In this document: piece after piece, positions 20,574-51,611 of the stretch
Position numbering within the stretch: the first letter of the stretch is position 1
Layout: each line of letters starts with the position of its first letter
Assembly: GCF_044324875.1 (NCBI RefSeq)
Contig: NZ_CP172185.1
Reading direction: 5' to 3' (one strand)
DNA: 64,000 nt
DNA from: Escherichia coli
GTDB lineage: Bacteria > Pseudomonadota > Gammaproteobacteria > Enterobacterales > Enterobacteriaceae
The notes under the pieces: model-generated
Told to the model about the DNA's origin: nothing
The model's database searches: none
Seen by the model: only the letters and a program-made list of their open reading frames with translations
Made by a program: the position numbers and the translations under genes

Positions 20574-21592
20574 TGAACCAACGTAATGCTTCAATGACTG
20601 TGATCGGTGCCGGCTCGTACGGCACCGCTCTTGCCATCACCCTGGCAAGAAATGGCCACGAGGTTGTCCTCTGGGGCCATGACCCTGAACATATCGCAAC
20701 GCTTGAACGCGACCGCTGTAACGCCGCGTTTCTCCCCGATGTGCCTTTTCCCGATACGCTCCATCTTGAAAGCGATCTCGCCACTGCGCTGGCAGCCAGC
20801 CGTAATATTCTCGTCGTCGTACCCAGCCATGTCTTTGGTGAAGTGCTGCGTCAGATTAAACCGCTGATGCGTCCTGATGCGCGTCTGGTGTGGGCGACCA
20901 AAGGGCTGGAAGCGGAAACCGGGCGTCTGTTGCAGGACGTGGCGCGTGAGGCGTTAGGCGATCAAATTCCGCTGGCGGTTATCTCTGGCCCAACGTTTGC
21001 GAAAGAACTGGCAGCAGGTTTACCGACGGCTATTTCGCTGGCCTCTACCGACCAGACCTTTGCTGATGATCTCCAGCAGCTGCTGCACTGCGGCAAAAGT
21101 TTCCGCGTTTACAGCAATCCGGATTTCATCGGTGTGCAGCTTGGCGGCGCGGTGAAAAACGTCATTGCCATTGGCGCGGGAATGTCCGACGGTATCGGTT
21201 TTGGTGCGAATGCGCGTACGGCGCTGATCACTCGTGGGCTGGCTGAGATGTCGCGTCTTGGCGCGGCGCTGGGTGCCGATCCTGCCACCTTTATGGGCAT
21301 GGCGGGGCTGGGCGATCTGGTGCTTACCTGTACCGACAACCAGTCGCGTAACCGCCGTTTTGGCATGATGCTCGGTCAGGGCATGGATGTACAAAGCGCG
21401 CAGGAGAAGATTGGTCAGGTGGTGGAAGGCTACCGCAATACGAAAGAAGTCCGCGAACTGGCGCATCGCTTCGGCGTTGAAATGCCAATAACCGAGGAAA
21501 TTTATCAAGTATTATATTGCGGAAAAAACGCGCACGAGGCAGCATTGACGTTATTAGGGCGTGCACGCAAGGACGAGCGCAGTAGCCACTAA
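20573..21592 (+). CDS. gpsA: NAD(P)H-dependent glycerol-3-phosphate dehydrogenase
   Basis: 339 aa with [10 protein letters not shown] Rossmann motif. Confidence 0.95.
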
Positions 21593-21621
21593 ACCCAGGG
21601 AACCTTTGTTACCGCTATGAC

Positions 21622-21644
21622 CCGGCCCGCGCAGAACGGGCCGG
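21622..21644 (+). terminator. GC-rich hairpin between gpsA and cysE (possible partial terminator or attenuator)
   Basis: 8-bp perfect stem ccggcccg/cgggccgg with 7-nt loop; only a weak T tract follows. Confidence 0.4.
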
Positions 21645-21671
21645 TCATTATCTCATCGTGTGGAGTAAGCA

Positions 21672-22493
21672 ATGTCGTGTGAAGAACTGGAAATTGTCTG
21701 GAACAATATTAAAGCCGAAGCCAGAACGCTGGCGGATTGTGAGCCAATGCTGGCCAGTTTTTACCACGCGACGCTACTCAAGCACGAAAACCTGGGCAGT
21801 GCACTGAGCTACATGCTGGCGAACAAGCTGTCATCGCCAATTATGCCTGCCATTGCTATCCGCGAAGTGGTGGAAGAGGCCTACGCCGCCGACCCGGAAA
21901 TGATCGCTTCTGCGGCCTGTGATATTCAGGCAGTGCGTACCCGCGACCCGGCGGTGGATAAATACTCGACTCCATTGTTATATCTGAAAGGTTTTCATGC
22001 CTTGCAGGCCTATCGTATCGGTCACTGGCTGTGGAATCAGGGCCGCCGCGCACTGGCAATATTTCTGCAAAACCAGGTTTCTGTAACGTTCCAGGTTGAT
22101 ATTCACCCGGCAGCAAAAATTGGCCGCGGTATCATGCTTGACCACGCCACGGGCATCGTTGTGGGTGAAACGGCGGTGATTGAAAACGACGTATCGATTC
22201 TGCAATCTGTGACGCTTGGCGGTACGGGTAAATCTGGTGGCGACCGTCATCCGAAAATTCGTGAAGGTGTGATGATTGGCGCGGGCGCGAAAATCCTCGG
22301 CAATATTGAAGTTGGGCGCGGCGCGAAGATTGGCGCAGGTTCCGTGGTGCTGCAACCGGTGCCGCCGCATACCACCGCCGCTGGCGTTCCGGCACGCATT
22401 GTCGGCAAGCCGGATAGCGATAAACCGTCAATGGATATGGATCAGCATTTCAACGGTATTAACCATACGTTTGAATATGGGGATGGGATCTGA
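21672..22493 (+). CDS. cysE: Serine O-acetyltransferase
   Basis: 273-aa hexapeptide-repeat acyltransferase matching CysE. Confidence 0.95.
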   Translation: MSCEELEIVWNNIKAEARTLADCEPMLASFYHATLLKHENLGSALSYMLANKLSSPIMPAIAIREVVEEAYAADPEMIASAACDIQAVRTRDPAVDKYSTPLLYLKGFHALQAYRIGHWLWNQGRRALAIFLQNQVSVTFQVDIHPAAKIGRGIMLDHATGIVVGETAVIENDVSILQSVTLGGTGKSGGDRHPKIREGVMIGAGAKILGNIEVGRGAKIGAGSVVLQPVPPHTTAAGVPARIVGKPDSDKPSMDMDQHFNGINHTFEYGDGI

Positions 22494-39495: not shown

Positions 39496-39638
39496 AAAAA
39501 CACCCCTTCTTATGTTTGCTGTCGCGCAGGCTGGAAGCCCGAGGTTTTTTGTTAATGTGGCGGCAGAGGTAGCCGGACCTTGTAGATACTGCGAAATCTG
39601 GCACTGAATCGGTTAACTGTCCAGTCGACGGCCTTTTG

Positions 39639-39654
39639 TGTGATATCGGTCACA
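39639..39654. promoter_or_regulatory. CRP binding site (perfect consensus half-sites) in mtlA promoter
   Basis: TGTGA-tatcgg-TCACA. Confidence 0.75.
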
Positions 39655-39755
39655 TAAATATAGGGGGTAGAGAGGTAATTGACGTGATGCTCATCACAAA
39701 ACTATTGTGTAAAAAAGCAACAAGGCGGCGATTTTCGCTAAAAATGGCATTTAAA

Positions 39756-39771
39756 TGTGAGTAATGTCACA
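39756..39771. promoter_or_regulatory. CRP binding site (perfect consensus half-sites) in mtlA promoter
   Basis: TGTGA-gtaatg-TCACA. Confidence 0.75.
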
Positions 39772-39799
39772 TTTTTGTTTTGTTGGTTTGTTGAATCTT

Positions 39800-39815
39800 T
39801 GTGATCTGAATCACA
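39800..39815. promoter_or_regulatory. CRP binding site (perfect consensus half-sites) in mtlA promoter
   Basis: TGTGA-tctgaa-TCACA. Confidence 0.75.
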
Positions 39816-40031
39816 AGATATTTTCTTACGGCGTTCACCTGATGTGATCTACAGCATGTTATGCCCTCGTCATAAAATCGTTATGTAACTAAGCAACTCA
39901 TCACCTCTAAAAATTATTCTTTGGTGTTATGGCGAGAATCGCGAACCCGAATTATTGTCAAAATATCAGCCTGACTCCCTTCTGGCTGCCAGCCAAAAAA
40001 CAACACTGATAAACGTGAATCCGAGGCAGAT

Positions 40032-40394
40032 ATGTTTCTAAACTATTTCGCGTTGGGAGTGCTGATCTTCGTCTTTCTGGTGATTTTTTATGGAATCATC
40101 GCGATACATGACATCCCTTATCTGATTGCCAAAAAGCGCAACCACCCCCATGCCGACGCTATTCATACAGCGGGCTGGGTGAGCCTGTTTACTCTGCATG
40201 TTATCTGGCCGTTTCTGTGGATCTGGGCGACGCTCTATCAACCGGAGCGCGGCTGGGGCATGCAGTCACATGTTGCGTCGCAAGAGAAAGCGACTGACCC
40301 GGAAATCGCCGCACTTTCTGACCGAATTTCCCGGCTGGAGCACCAACTCGCCGCCGAGAAAAAGACTGACTATTCCACGTTCCCGGAGATCTAA
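40032..40394 (+). CDS. yibI: DUF3302-family small inner-membrane protein
   Basis: 120 aa with two predicted TM segments; N-terminal ~78 aa near-identical to the yiaW product in this window. Confidence 0.8.
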
Positions 40395-40396
40395 AT

Positions 40397-41533
40397 ATGG
40401 ATCTATTGATTGTTTTAACTTACGTGGCGCTGGCGTGGGCGGTCTTTAAAATCTTCCGCATTCCGGTGAATCAGTGGACGCTGGCGACGGCGGCGCTGGG
40501 AGGCGTGTTTCTGGTGAGTGGTTTGATTTTGTTGATGAACTACAACCACCCTTACACTTTTACCGCGCAAAAGGCAGTGATAGCGATCCCCATCACGCCA
40601 CAGGTGACGGGAATTGTTACTGAAGTCACCGACAAAAATAATCAGCTTATTCAGAAGGGCGAGGTGCTTTTTAAGCTCGACCCGGTTCGTTACCAGGCGC
40701 GAGTTGACAGACTTCAGGCTGACCTGATGACGGCGACGCATAATATAAAGACGCTGCGCGCGCAGCTCACTGAAGCGCAGGCCAACACCACCCAGGTTTC
40801 AGCGGAGCGCGACCGTCTGTTTAAAAATTATCAACGTTACCTGAAAGGCAGCCAGGCGGCGGTGAATCCGTTCTCGGAACGTGACATCGACGATGCGCGG
40901 CAAAACTTCCTCGCGCAGGACGCGCTGGTGAAAGGCTCGGTGGCGGAGCAGGCGCAGATCCAGAGCCAGCTCGACAGTATGGTTAACGGCGAGCAATCGC
41001 AGATTGTGAGCTTAAGAGCGCAACTTACTGAAGCAAAATATAACCTTGAGCAGACTGTCATTCGCGCACCAAGCAATGGCTACGTTACTCAGGTACTGAT
41101 CCGCCCAGGTACATACGCAGCTGCCTTGCCGCTACGTCCGGTGATGGTTTTCATCCCCGAGCAAAAACGGCAAATTGTCGCCCAATTTCGGCAGAACTCG
41201 CTGTTACGTCTGAAACCCGGCGATGATGCGGAAGTGGTGTTTAACGCGCTACCTGGGCAGGTGTTCCACGGCAAACTGACCAGTATTTTACCTGTCGTGC
41301 CAGGCGGTTCGTATCAGGCGCAAGGGGTATTGCAATCATTAACGGTCGTGCCCGGCACGGACGGTGTGCTGGGAACCATTGAACTGGACCCCAACGATGA
41401 TATCGATGCCTTACCCGACGGCATCTACGCCCAGGTGGCGGTTTACTCCGACCATTTCAGCCATGTTTCGGTGATGCGAAAAGTGCTGCTAAGAATGACC
41501 AGCTGGATGCATTATCTTTATTTGGATCATTGA
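40397..41533 (+). CDS. yibH: HlyD-family membrane-fusion-like protein
   Basis: 378 aa; N-terminal TM anchor, coiled coil, beta-barrel-like C-terminus; paralogue of the yiaV product. Confidence 0.8.
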
Positions 41534-41603
41534 GACTTATATCACCTGTGTTTTGCGTGAGCCTGAGCCATACTGATATTTTTCCTCGCACAAAGGACTC
41601 GGC

Positions 41604-42212
41604 ATGAAACTCGTCGGTAGCTACACCAGCCCGTTTGTACGCAAACTTTCTATTCTGTTGTTAGAAAAGGGCATAACTTTCGAATTTATTAATGAACTGC
41701 CCTATAACGCGGACAACGGCGTGGCGCAATTTAACCCGTTAGGGAAAGTGCCGGTGCTGGTGACCGAAGAGGGCGAATGCTGGTTTGATTCGCCGATCAT
41801 CGCTGAATATATTGAATTAATGAATGTCGCTCCGGCGATGTTGCCGCGCGATCCGCTGGAGTCGTTGCGGGTGCGCAAAATTGAGGCACTGGCGGATGGC
41901 ATTATGGATGCCGGGCTGGTATCGGTGCGTGAACAGGCGCGTCCAGCGGCGCAGCAGTCTGAAGATGAATTGTTACGCCAGCGGGAGAAAATCAACCGCA
42001 GTCTGGATGTGCTGGAAGGATATCTGGTCGATGGCACACTCAAAACCGATACGGTCAATCTGGCGACTATCGCCATTGCCTGTGCCGTCGGATATCTCAA
42101 TTTCCGCCGCGTTGCGCCAGGTTGGTGTGTCGACCGCCCACACTTAGTCAAACTGGTCGAAAACCTGTTTAGCCGCGAAAGTTTTGCTCGCACCGAACCG
42201 CCAAAGGCTTGA
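41604..42212 (+). CDS. yibF: Glutathione S-transferase family protein
   Basis: 202 aa with GST N- and C-domain character. Confidence 0.85.
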
Positions 42213-45731: not shown

Positions 45732-46883
45732 ATGGCAGCTTCAACCTTTTTTATTCCTGCCGTGAATGTTATTGGTGCTGATTCATTGAATGATGCAATG
45801 AATATGATGGCAGATTATGGATTTACCCGTACCTTAATTGTCACTGACAATATGTTAACGAAATTGGGTATGGCGGGTGATGTGCAAAAAGCACTGGAAG
45901 AACGCAATATTTTTAGCGTTATTTATGATGGCACCCAACCTAACCCCACCACGGAAAACGTCGCTGCAGGTTTGAAATTACTTAAAGAAAATAATTGCGA
46001 TAGCGTGATTTCCTTAGGCGGTGGTTCTCCACACGACTGCGCAAAAGGTATTGCGCTGGTGGCAGCCAATGGTGGCGATATTCGCGATTACGAAGGCGTT
46101 GACCGCTCTGCAAAACCGCAGCTGCCGATGATCGCCATCAATACCACGGCGGGTACGGCCTCTGAAATGACCCGTTTCTGCATCATCACTGACGAAGCGC
46201 GTCATATCAAAATGGCGATTGTTGATAAACATGTAACTCCGTTGCTTTCTGTCAATGACTCCTCGCTGATGATCGGTATGCCGAAGTCACTGACCGCCGC
46301 AACGGGTATGGATGCCTTAACACACGCTATCGAAGCGTATGTCTCTATCGCTGCAACGCCGATCACTGACGCTTGCGCACTGAAAGCGGTGACCATGATT
46401 GCCGAAAACCTGCCGTTAGCCGTTGAAGATGGCAGCAATGCTAAAGCGCGTGAAGCAATGGCTTATGCCCAGTTCCTCGCTGGTATGGCGTTCAACAACG
46501 CATCTCTTGGTTATGTTCATGCGATGGCGCACCAACTGGGCGGTTTCTACAACCTGCCACACGGTGTATGTAATGCTGTTCTGCTGCCACACGTTCAGGT
46601 GTTCAACAGCAAAGTCGCTGCTGCGCGTCTGCGTGACTGTGCTGCTGCCATGGGCGTTAACGTGACAGGCAAAAATGACGCGGAAGGCGCAGAAGCGTGC
46701 ATCAATGCCATCCGTGAACTGGCGAAGAAAGTGAATATCCCGGCAGGCCTGCGTGACCTGAACGTGAAAGAAGAGGATTTCGCGGTACTGGCCACCAATG
46801 CCCTGAAAGATGCGTGTGGGTTTACTAACCCGATTCAGGCAACTCACGAAGAGATTGTGGCAATTTATCGCGCTGCGATGTAA
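45732..46883 (+). CDS. yiaY: Iron-containing alcohol dehydrogenase
   Basis: 383-aa Fe-ADH family sequence matching YiaY. Confidence 0.9.
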
Positions 46884-46896
46884 TCATCATTCCCCC

Positions 46897-46925
46897 AATG
46901 GCTGGCTAATTGTCAGCCATTTTTT
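46897..46925 (+). terminator. Intrinsic terminator after yiaY
   Basis: Stem aatggctg/cagccatt followed by TTTTT. Confidence 0.75.
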
Positions 46926-47083
46926 AAACTATCTCAAAATTTGCGATTTTTGAGAGAGTTTTAGTTATCTCTGTAACCCTTGCCCGTAAATTCGTGATAG
47001 CCGTCGTAAAGCTGTTACCGACTGGCGAAGATTTCGCCAGCCACGTCTACCCTTGTTATACCTCACACCGCAAGGAGACGATC

Positions 47084-48622
47084 ATGACCAATAATCCCCC
47101 TTCAGCACAGATTAAGCCCGGCGAGTATGGTTTCCCCCTCAAGTTAAAAACCCGCTATGACAACTTTATTGGCGGCGAATGGGTAGCCCCTGCCGATGGT
47201 GAGTATTACCAGAACCTGACGCCGGTGACCGGGCAGCTGCTGTGCGAAGTGGCGTCTTCGGGCAAACGAGACATCGATCTGGCGCTGGATGCTGCGCACA
47301 AAGTGAAAGATAAATGGGCGCACACCTCGGTGCAGGATCGTGCGGCGATTCTGTTTAAGATTGCCGATCGAATGGAACAAAACCTCGAGCTGTTAGCGAC
47401 AGCTGAAACCTGGGATAACGGCAAACCCATTCGCGAAACCAGTGCTGCTGATGTACCGCTGGCGATTGACCATTTCCGCTATTTCGCCTCGTGTATTCGG
47501 GCGCAGGAAGGTGGGATCAGTGAAGTTGATAGCGAAACCGTGGCCTATCATTTCCATGAACCGTTAGGCGTGGTGGGGCAGATTATCCCGTGGAACTTCC
47601 CGCTGCTGATGGCGAGCTGGAAAATGGCCCCTGCGCTGGCGGCGGGCAACTGCGTGGTGCTGAAACCCGCACGGCTTACCCCGCTTTCTGTACTGCTGCT
47701 AATGGAAATCGTCGGTGATTTACTGCCGCCGGGCGTGGTGAACGTGGTCAACGGTGCAGGTGGGGAAATTGGCGAATATCTGGCGACCTCGAAACGCATC
47801 GCCAAAGTGGCGTTTACCGGCTCAACGGAAGTGGGTCAACAAATTATGCAATACGCCACGCAAAACATTATTCCGGTGACGCTGGAGCTGGGCGGCAAAT
47901 CGCCAAATATCTTCTTTGCTGACGTGATGGATGAAGAAGATGCCTTTTTTGATAAAGCGCTGGAAGGCTTTGCACTGTTTGCCTTTAACCAGGGCGAAGT
48001 TTGCACCTGTCCAAGCCGTGCTTTAGTGCAGGAGTCTATCTACGAACGCTTCATGGAACGCGCCATCCGCCGTGTTGAAAGTATTCGTAGCGGTAACCCG
48101 CTCGACAGCGTGACGCAAATGGGCGCGCAGGTTTCTCACGGGCAACTGGAAACCATCCTCAACTACATTGATATTGGTAAAAAAGAGGGCGCAGACGTGC
48201 TCACCGGCGGGCGGCGCAAGCTGCTGGAAGGAGAACTGAAAGACGGCTACTACCTCGAACCGACGATTCTGTTTGGTCAGAATAATATGCGCGTGTTCCA
48301 GGAAGAAATTTTTGGTCCGGTGCTGGCGGTGACCACCTTCAAAACGATGGAAGAAGCGCTGGAGCTGGCGAACGACACACAATATGGCCTGGGCGCGGGT
48401 GTCTGGAGCCGCAACGGTAATCTGGCCTATAAGATGGGGCGCGGCATTCAGGCTGGGCGCGTGTGGACCAACTGTTATCACGCTTACCCGGCACATGCGG
48501 CGTTTGGCGGCTACAAACAGTCGGGCATCGGACGCGAAACCCATAAGATGATGCTTGAGCATTACCAGCAAACCAAGTGCCTGCTGGTGAGCTATTCGGA
48601 TAAACCGTTGGGGCTGTTCTGA
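47084..48622 (+). CDS. aldB: Aldehyde dehydrogenase B
   Basis: ORF track 5'-overextended; start [17 protein letters not shown] gives 512 aa. Confidence 0.93.
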
Positions 48623-49174: not shown

Positions 49175-49498
49175 ATGTTCCTGGATTATTTTGCATTGGG
49201 AGTGCTTATTTTTGTATTTCTGGTGATATTCTATGGGATTATTATTTTACATGATGTTCCCTACCTGATTGCTAAAAAACGTAATCATCCACATGCCGAC
49301 GCCATTCATGTTGCTGGTTGGGTAAGTCTTTTTACGTTACATGTTATCTGGCCATTTTTGTGGATTTGGGCCACGCTTTACCGCCCGGAGCGGGGATGGG
49401 GAATGCAAAACCATGACTCCTCCGTTGTGCAACTACAACAGCGTATTGCCGGGCTGGAGAAACAGCTCGCCGACATCAAATCCTCTTCTGCCGAGTAA
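49175..49498 (+). CDS. yiaW: DUF3302-family small inner-membrane protein
   Basis: 107 aa from [11 protein letters not shown]; paralogue of the yibI product. Confidence 0.85.
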
Positions 49499-49503
49499 TA
49501 CTT

Positions 49504-50640
49504 ATGGATTTACTGATTATTTTAACCTATGTGGCTTTCGCATGGGCAATGTTTAAGATCTTCAAAATTCCTGTAAATAAATGGACCATTCCCACAGCGG
49601 CCCTGGGTGGCATATTTATTGTCAGCGGTTTAATTCTGTTAATGAACTATAACCATCCGTATACCTTTAAAGCGCAAAAAGCGGTTATTTCTATTCCTGT
49701 TGTCCCACAGGTGACAGGCGTGGTGATCGAAGTGACGGACAAGAAAAATACGCTGATTAAAAAAGGTGAGGTGCTATTTCGACTGGACCCGACGCGTTAT
49801 CAGGCGCGGGTGGATCGGCTGATGGCGGATATCGTTACCGCAGAACATAAACAGCGGGCGTTGGGCGCAGAGTTAGATGAGATGGCGGCGAATACTCAGC
49901 AGGCAAAGGCCACGCGGGATAAATTCGCTAAAGAGTATCAGCGTTACGCACGCGGCAGTCAGGCGAAAGTAAACCCGTTTTCAGAACGTGATATCGATGT
50001 GGCGCGGCAAAATTATCTGGCACAGGAAGCCTCCGTAAAATCAGCGGCGGCGGAACAAAAACAGATCCTGAGCCAGCTGGATAGCCTGGTGTTGGGTGAA
50101 CATTCTCAAATCGCCAGCCTGAAAGCACAGCTCGCGGAAGCAAAATATAACCTTGAGCAGACGATAGTGCGTGCGCCGAGCGATGGTTATGTGACCCAGG
50201 TACTGATTCGTCCGGGTACCTATGCCGCGTCGCTGCCGCTACGTCCGGTGATGGTGTTTATACCCGATCAGAAACGACAAATCGTGGCGCAGTTCCGTCA
50301 GAACTCCTTGCTGCGACTGGCTCCTGGCGACGATGCGGAAGTGGTGTTTAATGCTCTGCCAGGTAAGGTATTCAGCGGTAAGCTGGCAGCCATTAGTCCA
50401 GCCGTTCCCGGCGGAGCTTATCAGTCGACCGGCACCTTACAGACGTTAAACACAGCGCCGGGTTCAGATGGCGTTATCGCGACCATTGAACTGGATGAGC
50501 ATACTGATTTGAGCGCATTACCAGACGGTATTTACGCCCAGGTGGCGGTCTACTCTGATCATTTCAGCCATGTCTCGGTGATGCGCAAAGTACTGTTACG
50601 CATGACCAGCTGGGTGCATTACCTTTATCTCGATCATTAA
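49504..50640 (+). CDS. yiaV: HlyD-family membrane-fusion-like protein
   Basis: 378 aa; paralogue of the yibH product, with an almost identical C-terminal tail. Confidence 0.85.
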
Positions 50641-51611
50641 TCTTCGCTTTCCGCCGTTTGTTCAGGCCGCAGTTGCTGCGACTGAGCAAGCTGGTGGCGA
50701 ATTTCACGCAGCATTTCATCCAGCACATACTGGACCCGCCAGGGCTGGTATTCCCGTTTACGGAAGATAGCCACCAGATCCAGCCACCATTCATACGGGT
50801 GCTGAAAGCAGGGCACCAGCGTGCCGTCTTGCAGGTCGCTCTGCACACTTTTGTCTGGCGCAAACACAATCCCCAGGTGATTTCGTGCCAGCTCCAGCGC
50901 AGATTGCGTGTTGTCGCAAACGTAATTTCCCTTCACGCGATAATCCCGCACCTCTTTACTCCCGGCGACGTTGAAGCGCCAGATATTCGCGTCGTCGATC
51001 ATCATCGAGTCGATCAAAATACAGGAGTGATGTTCGAGTTCGTCAGGACGGCTAATGGGATGTTTCTCAAGATAGCGCTGGCTGGCATAAGCGGTTACGG
51101 CATATTGGGTAATAAAACTGGCAACCAGCGATTCATCTTTTGGTTGGGCGTAGCTGATTAAAACATCACAATCATCGGGAAATTCGACGCCTTCATAAAA
51201 GGCATTACGCTCAAGATTGCAGGTTTTTAGCGATAAGGTGATATCACCGATATCTTTAATTTTATCGATTACATGTTTGGATAAATAGGTAATTATGCCG
51301 GTTGGTGCATAGATAGTGACCCGACCACGTTTCTCATGCTTATAATCTGCAATAAAATTATTAAGCTGCTCGTTTCTGTCCAGCATGTCGTTGATGTACG
51401 GTAACAGCACGGTGCCAAAAGGTGTGAGCATCAGCTGTCGGGTGGTTCGGTCAAAGACTTTTAAACCCACTTTTGATTCAAAATCAGCAAGATATTTGCT
51501 GACGTTGGCCTGTGCGATGCCAAGTACAGTCGCGGCATGGCTGATATTTTCACTGGCAGCGATTACCGAGATAATTTTTAACTCCCGGTACTTAAGTTGT
51601 AATTTTGTCAT
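50637..51611 (-). CDS. yiaU: LysR-family transcriptional regulator
   Basis: 324 aa with N-terminal HTH and LysR substrate-binding domain; convergent with yiaV, stops overlap. Confidence 0.88.

Follow-up and report, generated by a model that had tools for sequence, protein, structure and literature searches.

Genes for membrane-fusion protein (MFP) adaptors normally adjoin the gene of an inner-membrane transporter; the gene of the outer-membrane factor, by contrast, often lies at a different locus. To our knowledge, YibH and YiaV are the Escherichia coli membrane-fusion proteins left without a pump, and each is encoded directly behind a small membrane protein of the DUF3302 family. The question raised by this locus is what an adaptor does with such a protein as its partner. 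Both gene pairs lie within one stretch of E. coli DNA of 64,000 nucleotides, here called the window.

Two gene pairs of one architecture

The features of the window considered here are the following.

yibI, 40032 to 40394, plus strand: 120-aa DUF3302 protein (ORF listing, Pfam match)
yibH, 40397 to 41533, plus strand: 378-aa EmrA-like membrane fusion protein of the HlyD family (ORF listing, HMMs, AF2 model)
yiaW, 49175 to 49498, plus strand: 107-aa DUF3302 paralogue of yibI (ORF listing, alignment)
yiaV, 49504 to 50640, plus strand: 378-aa paralogue of yibH (ORF listing, alignment)
mtlA-yibI divergent intergenic region, 39496 to 40031, no strand: 536 bp with CRP-core palindromes
yiaU, 50637 to 51611, minus strand: LysR regulator convergent with yiaV, given as context with no module membership implied
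yibF, 41604 to 42212, plus strand: glutathione S-transferase 70 nt downstream of yibH, given as context only

The start of yiaW is the ATG with a GAGGGA Shine-Dalgarno sequence; the mechanical ORF list begins at an upstream TTG (49145). RefSeq calls for yibI (DUF3302 domain-containing protein), yibH (HlyD family secretion protein) and yibF agree with these features in complete E. coli genomes that are 100% identical across 39500-42000. The preliminary description had presented the two pairs as copies of a single architecture, and the ORFs, HMM matches and protein identities (73% for YibI/YiaW and 77% for YibH/YiaV) bear this out: a gene for a DUF3302 protein with two transmembrane (TM) helices is followed by a 378-aa HlyD-family gene, with a stop-to-start gap of 2 nt in yibI-yibH and 5 nt in yiaW-yiaV. 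Annotation gives yibIH the neighbours mtlA, mtlD, mtlR, yibF and selAB, and yiaWV the neighbours aldB, yiaU (LysR) and yiaT (MipA/OmpV). Among these annotated neighbours no TolC-type factor and no ABC, RND, MFS or FUSC pump adjoins either pair, as had been noted at the outset. Equally, the earlier statement that no function has been assigned agrees with the literature searched for the four gene names, DUF3302 and PF11742, which gives none; in the 2024 y-ome survey both yibH and yibI are still among the uncharacterised genes (PMC11551758).

Some features of the surroundings are peculiar to strains. The order given for K-12 (PMC11551758) has an rhsA-yibJ-yibG-yibV cluster between yibF and yibH, and this Rhs element is absent from the window (41533-41604). 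A strain 100% identical over the yibIH region carries an IS200C transposase gene between yiaY and aldB (21571-22029 of its locus, L001), whereas in the window these two genes lie too close together (about 46883-47084) to accommodate it, which makes the window that of a different strain. The 3' ends of the convergent yiaV and yiaU share 4 nt (50637-50640).

Three perfect TGTGA-N6-TCACA cores (39639-39654, 39756-39771 and 39800-39815) were found by sequence scan in the spacer between the divergent mtlA and yibI, in line with the preliminary description, and a fourth CRP-core-like site with one mismatch lies at 39683-39698. Over the whole 64-kb window, matches with at most one mismatch number 5 against 1.9 expected. 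The same spacer was the top-ranked CRP-site region of E. coli in the PhyloScan study (PMC1794230). The cores are candidate sites, the target of which may be mtlA only or yibI too. Promoter-like sites around both modules occur at chance level in a promoter scan, and terminator-like sites around yibIH number 7 against 2.8 expected, about two standard deviations over chance. For the neighbouring regulator YiaU the names LpsR and CsuR have since been introduced, and links to yiaT, to the waa genes and to properties of the cell surface are described (PMC9068703; PMC9308461).

The DUF3302 protein and its adaptor

Residues 3-78 of YibI match positions 1-76 of the 77 in the PF11742 (DUF3302) model (E=3.3e-41) and the protein has two hydrophobic helices, so that both the family and the two TM helices first ascribed to it hold. 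The family is small, with 819 clusters at 50% identity among 1.84 billion representatives. Among 30 diverse members the core residues L3, P29, A33, H38, P39, A43, W49, S51, W59, P60 and W65 are invariant, and a set of His and Asp residues (H26, D27, H38, H40, D42, H45 and H56) is near-invariant, H56 lying in the middle of TM2. In an AF2 model in which YibI was fused to YibH by a linker, YibI forms a helical hairpin (about 2-35 and 41-68) and a C-terminal helix (about 90-113); the turn of the hairpin coincides with an R-N-H-P-H segment, including H38-P39, that is invariant in the family alignment. This fused model, built on 22 paired rows, is of low confidence (pTM 0.50, YibI pLDDT 56-77) and speaks neither for nor against a complex of the two proteins. 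An N-H-P motif is conserved both at the hairpin turn of YibI (residues 36-40, about 40137-40151 in the window) and at the periplasmic end of TM2 in YibH (residues 50-52, about 40544-40552). Despite this common motif, homology between YibI and the TM hairpin of YibH was rejected (hhalign probability 3.9%). Homology between DUF3302 and AaeX (DUF1656) was likewise rejected at an hhalign probability of 0.1%, a weak test since a single AaeX sequence was used. A search of PDB sequences with the DUF3302 profile returned only a marginal match to rhodopsin helices (E=0.002), read as hydrophobic bias, and among PADLOC anti-phage defence models YibI has no match and YibH only coiled-coil-level ones (E=0.005).

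YibH and YiaV are periplasmic adaptors of the EmrA/MdtN/AaeA branch of the membrane-fusion-protein family. YibH matches the HlyD-family models CusB_dom_1 (PF00529, E=4e-15) and HlyD_D23 (PF16576, E=5e-9), and against TIGR01730 (RND_mfp, cutoff 94.9) YibH scores above the cutoff at 99.9 bits and YiaV below it at 87.5. The nearest NCBIfam families are EmrA, MdtN and AaeA, with scores far under their equivalog cutoffs: for EmrA/EmrK, 113.5 against 390.8 bits (TIGR00998) and 57.1 against 563 (NF011715), and for AaeA, 75 against 400. A profile of the YibH family matches EmrA at E=1e-25. An AF2 model of YibH built on a 68-sequence family alignment (pLDDT 85.3) contains two TM helices (TM1, 2-19; TM2, 26-50), a lipoyl domain, an alpha-hairpin at 97-218 made of helices 97-152 and 161-218 (56 residues), a beta-barrel and a C-terminal helix at 355-374. 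With Foldseek, the top PDB matches of this model are the EmrA chains of EmrAB-TolC (8zal and 8zar; E=1e-19, TM 0.63-0.69), and MacA and AcrA rank after EmrA, the matches ranging overall from E=1e-19 to 1e-10. The HMM matches and the EmrA-like fold thus agree with the initial view of a 378-aa HlyD-type membrane-fusion-like protein. The two N-terminal TM helices of YibH were absent from that description.

Conservation within the adaptor is uneven. Among 39 distant members the TM region, the short inter-TM loop and the C-terminal helix are best conserved, and the hairpin is variable, the proteins falling into two length classes of roughly 318 and 378 aa. Conservation of the hairpin tip, taken as a proxy for TolC docking, was not seen family-wide, the tip not being alignable as hairpin length varies.

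Conservation and neighbours of the pair

Conservation of the pair was followed in a scan of one genome per species (76 loci) and in a metagenome scan seeded with distant members (80 more loci). The species-scan loci are mostly from Enterobacterales, with others from Alcanivorax, Rhizobium, Ferrimonas, Shewanella and Aeromonas. A YibH-like gene lies directly 3' of the DUF3302 gene in 70 of 77 cases in species genomes, the seven unpaired cases including contig ends and ORF-start artefacts (both of two full-length ones checked carry the pair), and in 55 of the 57 metagenome cases with enough room. The spacer between the two genes is mostly -4 to +5 nt, and distant members of 45-50% identity are paired as well. 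Altogether about 170 loci bear the pair, some of them metagenomic and the others belonging to Gamma- and Alphaproteobacteria and to Campylobacterota; the profile search for conservation as a unit, proposed in the preliminary description for Proteobacteria, therefore finds the DUF3302/HlyD pair kept beyond that group. One distant paired locus has neighbours (PSCyt2/PSD1 and DUF1501) which we take to look planctomycete-like. Apparent DUF3302-HlyD fusions at loci L110 and L114 were discarded as ORF-extension artefacts, the two parts being in different reading frames.

Both genes of the pair are under strong purifying selection, with dN/dS values of 0.02-0.06 (0.057 for yibI and 0.024 for yibH between E. 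coli and Citrobacter). Synonymous sites are saturated between the E. coli paralogues, indicating that the duplication is old and that both copies were kept; yibIH and yiaWV are best taken as ancient paralogues, each an envelope module of two genes that is complete in itself. Of 5426 complete E. coli genomes, 5425 match a query spanning 39500-42000, which also covers the mtlA-yibI spacer and part of yibF, and 5268 hold at least 80% of it. The yiaWV pair is present in 3804 of the 5426, so that about 30% of strains can dispense with the second copy. In a plasmid collection, Pantoea (30 records), Rhizobium (9) and Vibrio (5) carry homologous pairs on large non-mobilizable replicons, probably chromids or megaplasmids; conjugative plasmids seldom have one (3 records).

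The neighbours of the pair differ from lineage to lineage. Around 44 non-redundant pairs, the soluble or other flanking genes encode GST, acetolactate synthase, NapC, SecA, glyoxalase-family, EAL and LysR proteins, and the polytopic membrane flanks are equally heterogeneous (CstA-like, Amt, SulP, AI-2E, ACS-type MFS and MscS-like). AI-2E-family neighbours occur only twice (L108 and L159), too few for interpretation. Across the 44 non-redundant contexts there is no recurrent RND, MacB-type ABC, DHA2 MFS or FUSC pump, and AaeB and AaeX queries gave no match against all of the about 170 loci. YiaU, YiaT and YibF were considered as conserved partners and set aside, their association being essentially synteny within Enterobacterales and so not independent evidence; the LysR-family exception outside that order is a gene about 2.5 kb off in a Rhizobium locus (L071). 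Glutathione- or electrophile-linked neighbours are found in unrelated lineages, namely the GST gene yibF behind yibH in Enterobacterales and, at a distant metagenome locus, a gene of the glyoxalase family 3' of the adaptor gene; this may be coincidence.

Of the recurrent neighbours, only an outer-membrane factor of the TolC family (PF02321) is informative. A NodT-type factor gene lies directly 3' of the pair in at least three Campylobacterota lineages. Sulfurovum sp. NBC37-1 (AP009179.1), a Nitratifractor assembly and another MAG have the order DUF3302-adaptor-factor, as do several metagenome contigs. In clusters of this type the adaptor has about 318 aa and the factor 452-464 aa, with a spacer of 10-17 nt ahead of the factor gene, and the factor of L124 passes the curated NodT cutoff (213.1 against 210.05). 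A separate low-GC lineage has the order factor-DUF3302-adaptor with an 11-nt spacer. The outer flanks of the clusters with the order DUF3302-adaptor-factor vary, comprising nap genes, pyrF, UDG or DUF2092. In four loci (L124, L167, L168 and L169), all of a Sulfurovum-like subset, a gene for a Na_H_Exchanger-family protein of 401-411 aa begins at, or within about 13 nt of, the end of the factor gene, and L092 has a gene for a related exchanger about 850 nt ahead of DUF3302. These K+/H+ antiporter-like genes are located as follows.

L124, 6605 to 7810
L167, 9343 to 10557
L168, 6793 to 8028
L169, 8766 to 9995
L092, 5887 to 7107

A possible envelope duct and its alternatives

Of the known tripartite systems, EmrAB-TolC is nearest to the adaptor. 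EmrA is the best match of YibH in both sequence and structure, and YibH has the domain order of EmrA, with an anchor, a lipoyl domain, a long alpha-hairpin and a beta-barrel; nothing in it matches the membrane-proximal domain present in adaptors of the AcrA type. YibH differs from EmrA in a conserved C-terminal helix past the end of the EmrA alignment and in having two TM helices, against what we take to be one in EmrA. No EmrB-like DHA2 pump is next to the pair in any lineage, and the constant partner of YibH is instead DUF3302. AcrAB-TolC with AcrZ, and MacAB-TolC, resemble the module in combining a small membrane protein with a hairpin adaptor that could meet a TolC-family channel, and in some lineages the DUF3302 pair is itself co-encoded with an outer-membrane-factor gene. 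Those systems can do without the small protein and have a large co-encoded pump, whereas DUF3302 is the sole constant partner and is more conserved than its adaptor.

These comparisons suggest a tripartite-type envelope duct composed of outer-membrane factor, adaptor and DUF3302, with DUF3302 in the place of the pump. This is the reading placed first here, and it is quite possible, if somewhat short of probable. It is the most economical one because DUF3302 is the only constant close membrane partner of the adaptor and because the third gene, where one is conserved, is the factor. YibI or YiaW would assemble with YibH or YiaV in the inner membrane, perhaps, by analogy with EmrA, as a roughly hexameric ring of about 24 TM helices. 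The tube formed by the adaptor alpha-hairpins would dock on a TolC-family channel, which would be TolC in E. coli and the dedicated NodT-type factor where one is co-encoded, and DUF3302 would fill the slot usually held by an RND, ABC, MFS or FUSC pump. Its His/Asp set would be the best candidate for proton or metal-ion coupling or for gating. The preliminary description had concluded that the pairs are not a canonical efflux system; this stands as regards the co-encoded pump, which is missing, and is to be qualified in that the module is probably still efflux-like, YibH being EmrA-like and a TolC-family factor being co-encoded in other phyla. The genes of yibIH and yiaWV are already known and annotated, and what we infer as new is a pump-less system, a variant of the tripartite efflux theme. 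Against the duct, the factor adjoins the pair in just 2 of about 44 non-redundant lineages, E. coli not among them, and we know of no precedent for a two-TM protein as the energised part of a tripartite pump. The lack of family-wide conservation at the hairpin tip and the low confidence of the fused YibI-YibH model weigh on the same side.

A bolder form of this proposal, in which the two-TM DUF3302 oligomer itself represents a class of minimal inner-membrane translocators or gates, is rather unlikely. With an EmrA-like adaptor and a TolC-family channel it would constitute an unrecognised type of tripartite exporter, possibly proton- or metal-coupled through its His/Asp hairpin, with two examples in E. 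coli (YibIH and YiaWV). Should factor, adaptor and DUF3302 hold up as a complete unit, a new inner-membrane component would be added to the trans-envelope export machines and four y-genes would be assigned, with a possible bearing on envelope permeability, urinary-tract fitness and phage susceptibility. A factor-adaptor-DUF3302 cluster lacking a pump is in any case notable to specialists and makes the role of the orphan adaptors testable.

Published phenotypes of the genes are of an envelope type and are not defining. In uropathogenic E. coli yibI is induced by urine, in which a deletion mutant is less fit (competitive index 0.33); adhesion of the mutant is lower as well (PMC5404293). Loss of yiaW, as cited in PMC12844161, improves Ca2+ transformation, and IS1 insertions in yiaW were found in macrophage-evolved clones, the phenotype of which they do not explain (PMC5495878). 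Deletion of yibH in Klebsiella resulted in fewer plaques from evolved phages (PMC11796411), and yiaV was picked up in a GWAS of V. vulnificus (PMC10485832). That yibH has served as a neutral site for integration, no defect being reported (PMC5852967), counts against the duct.

The diffuse, envelope-related character of the effects on transformation, fitness in urine, adhesion and plaques fits a scaffold without transport function, spanning the periplasm or confined to the inner membrane and affecting envelope integrity, the surface or stress signalling, in which the adaptor would act as spacer or sensor and the His-rich DUF3302 hairpin as a sensor of pH or metals. The tail-to-tail arrangement of yiaV with yiaU, the regulator gene connected with LPS and the cell surface, and the stronger conservation of the membrane-proximal parts of the adaptor than of its hairpin tip point the same way. 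Such a scaffold is nevertheless unlikely, as the complete EmrA-like architecture of hairpin, lipoyl domain and barrel has been kept and a role other than that of a duct would hardly account for the presence, in two independent gene orders, of a co-encoded channel of the TolC family. In Sulfurovum-type loci the exchanger-family gene that follows the factor gene could be the real inner-membrane partner, which would speak against the duct there; on this view, which might extend more widely, the module would export or vent cations across the outer membrane with a cation/proton antiporter as its partner. The exchanger gene abuts the factor gene in four loci the upstream flanks of which differ, and L092 has its related exchanger upstream. 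The four tight cases, however, are closely related to one another, and the exchanger is missing from the factor-bearing clusters of Nitratifractor, L171/L172 and L099 and from every enterobacterial locus, leaving an antiporter partner highly improbable.

The main alternative, a somewhat unlikely one, is that a distantly encoded pump, whether an orphan FUSC-like, an MFS or an ABC protein, uses YibH and YiaV as spare adaptors, with DUF3302 as an accessory small subunit like AaeX in AaeXAB or AcrZ with AcrB. YccS, YhfK and YeeA are presumably the orphan FUSC-like candidates. A two-TM protein is unlikely as a motor, the nearest named families (EmrA, MdtN and AaeA) all serve co-encoded pumps, and aaeX-aaeA-aaeB also opens with a gene for a small two-TM protein followed by an adaptor gene, YibH and AaeA being 24% identical over 282 residues (E=2e-16). 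On the other side, no pump recurs in the about 44 independent contexts, three-gene factor clusters included, no AaeB-like gene was found in about 170 loci, DUF3302 has no detectable relation to AaeX (as judged with the one AaeX sequence), and DUF3302 is far more conserved than expected of a dispensable accessory. A distal pump, if found, would settle what the orphan adaptors serve.

Both kinds of gene pair occur together on one contig. In L168 a DUF1656 (AaeX-like) gene and an AaeA-like adaptor gene lie at 695-1792, about 2.3 kb upstream of the DUF3302 cluster, and their separation from the DUF3302 module indicates two distinct systems.
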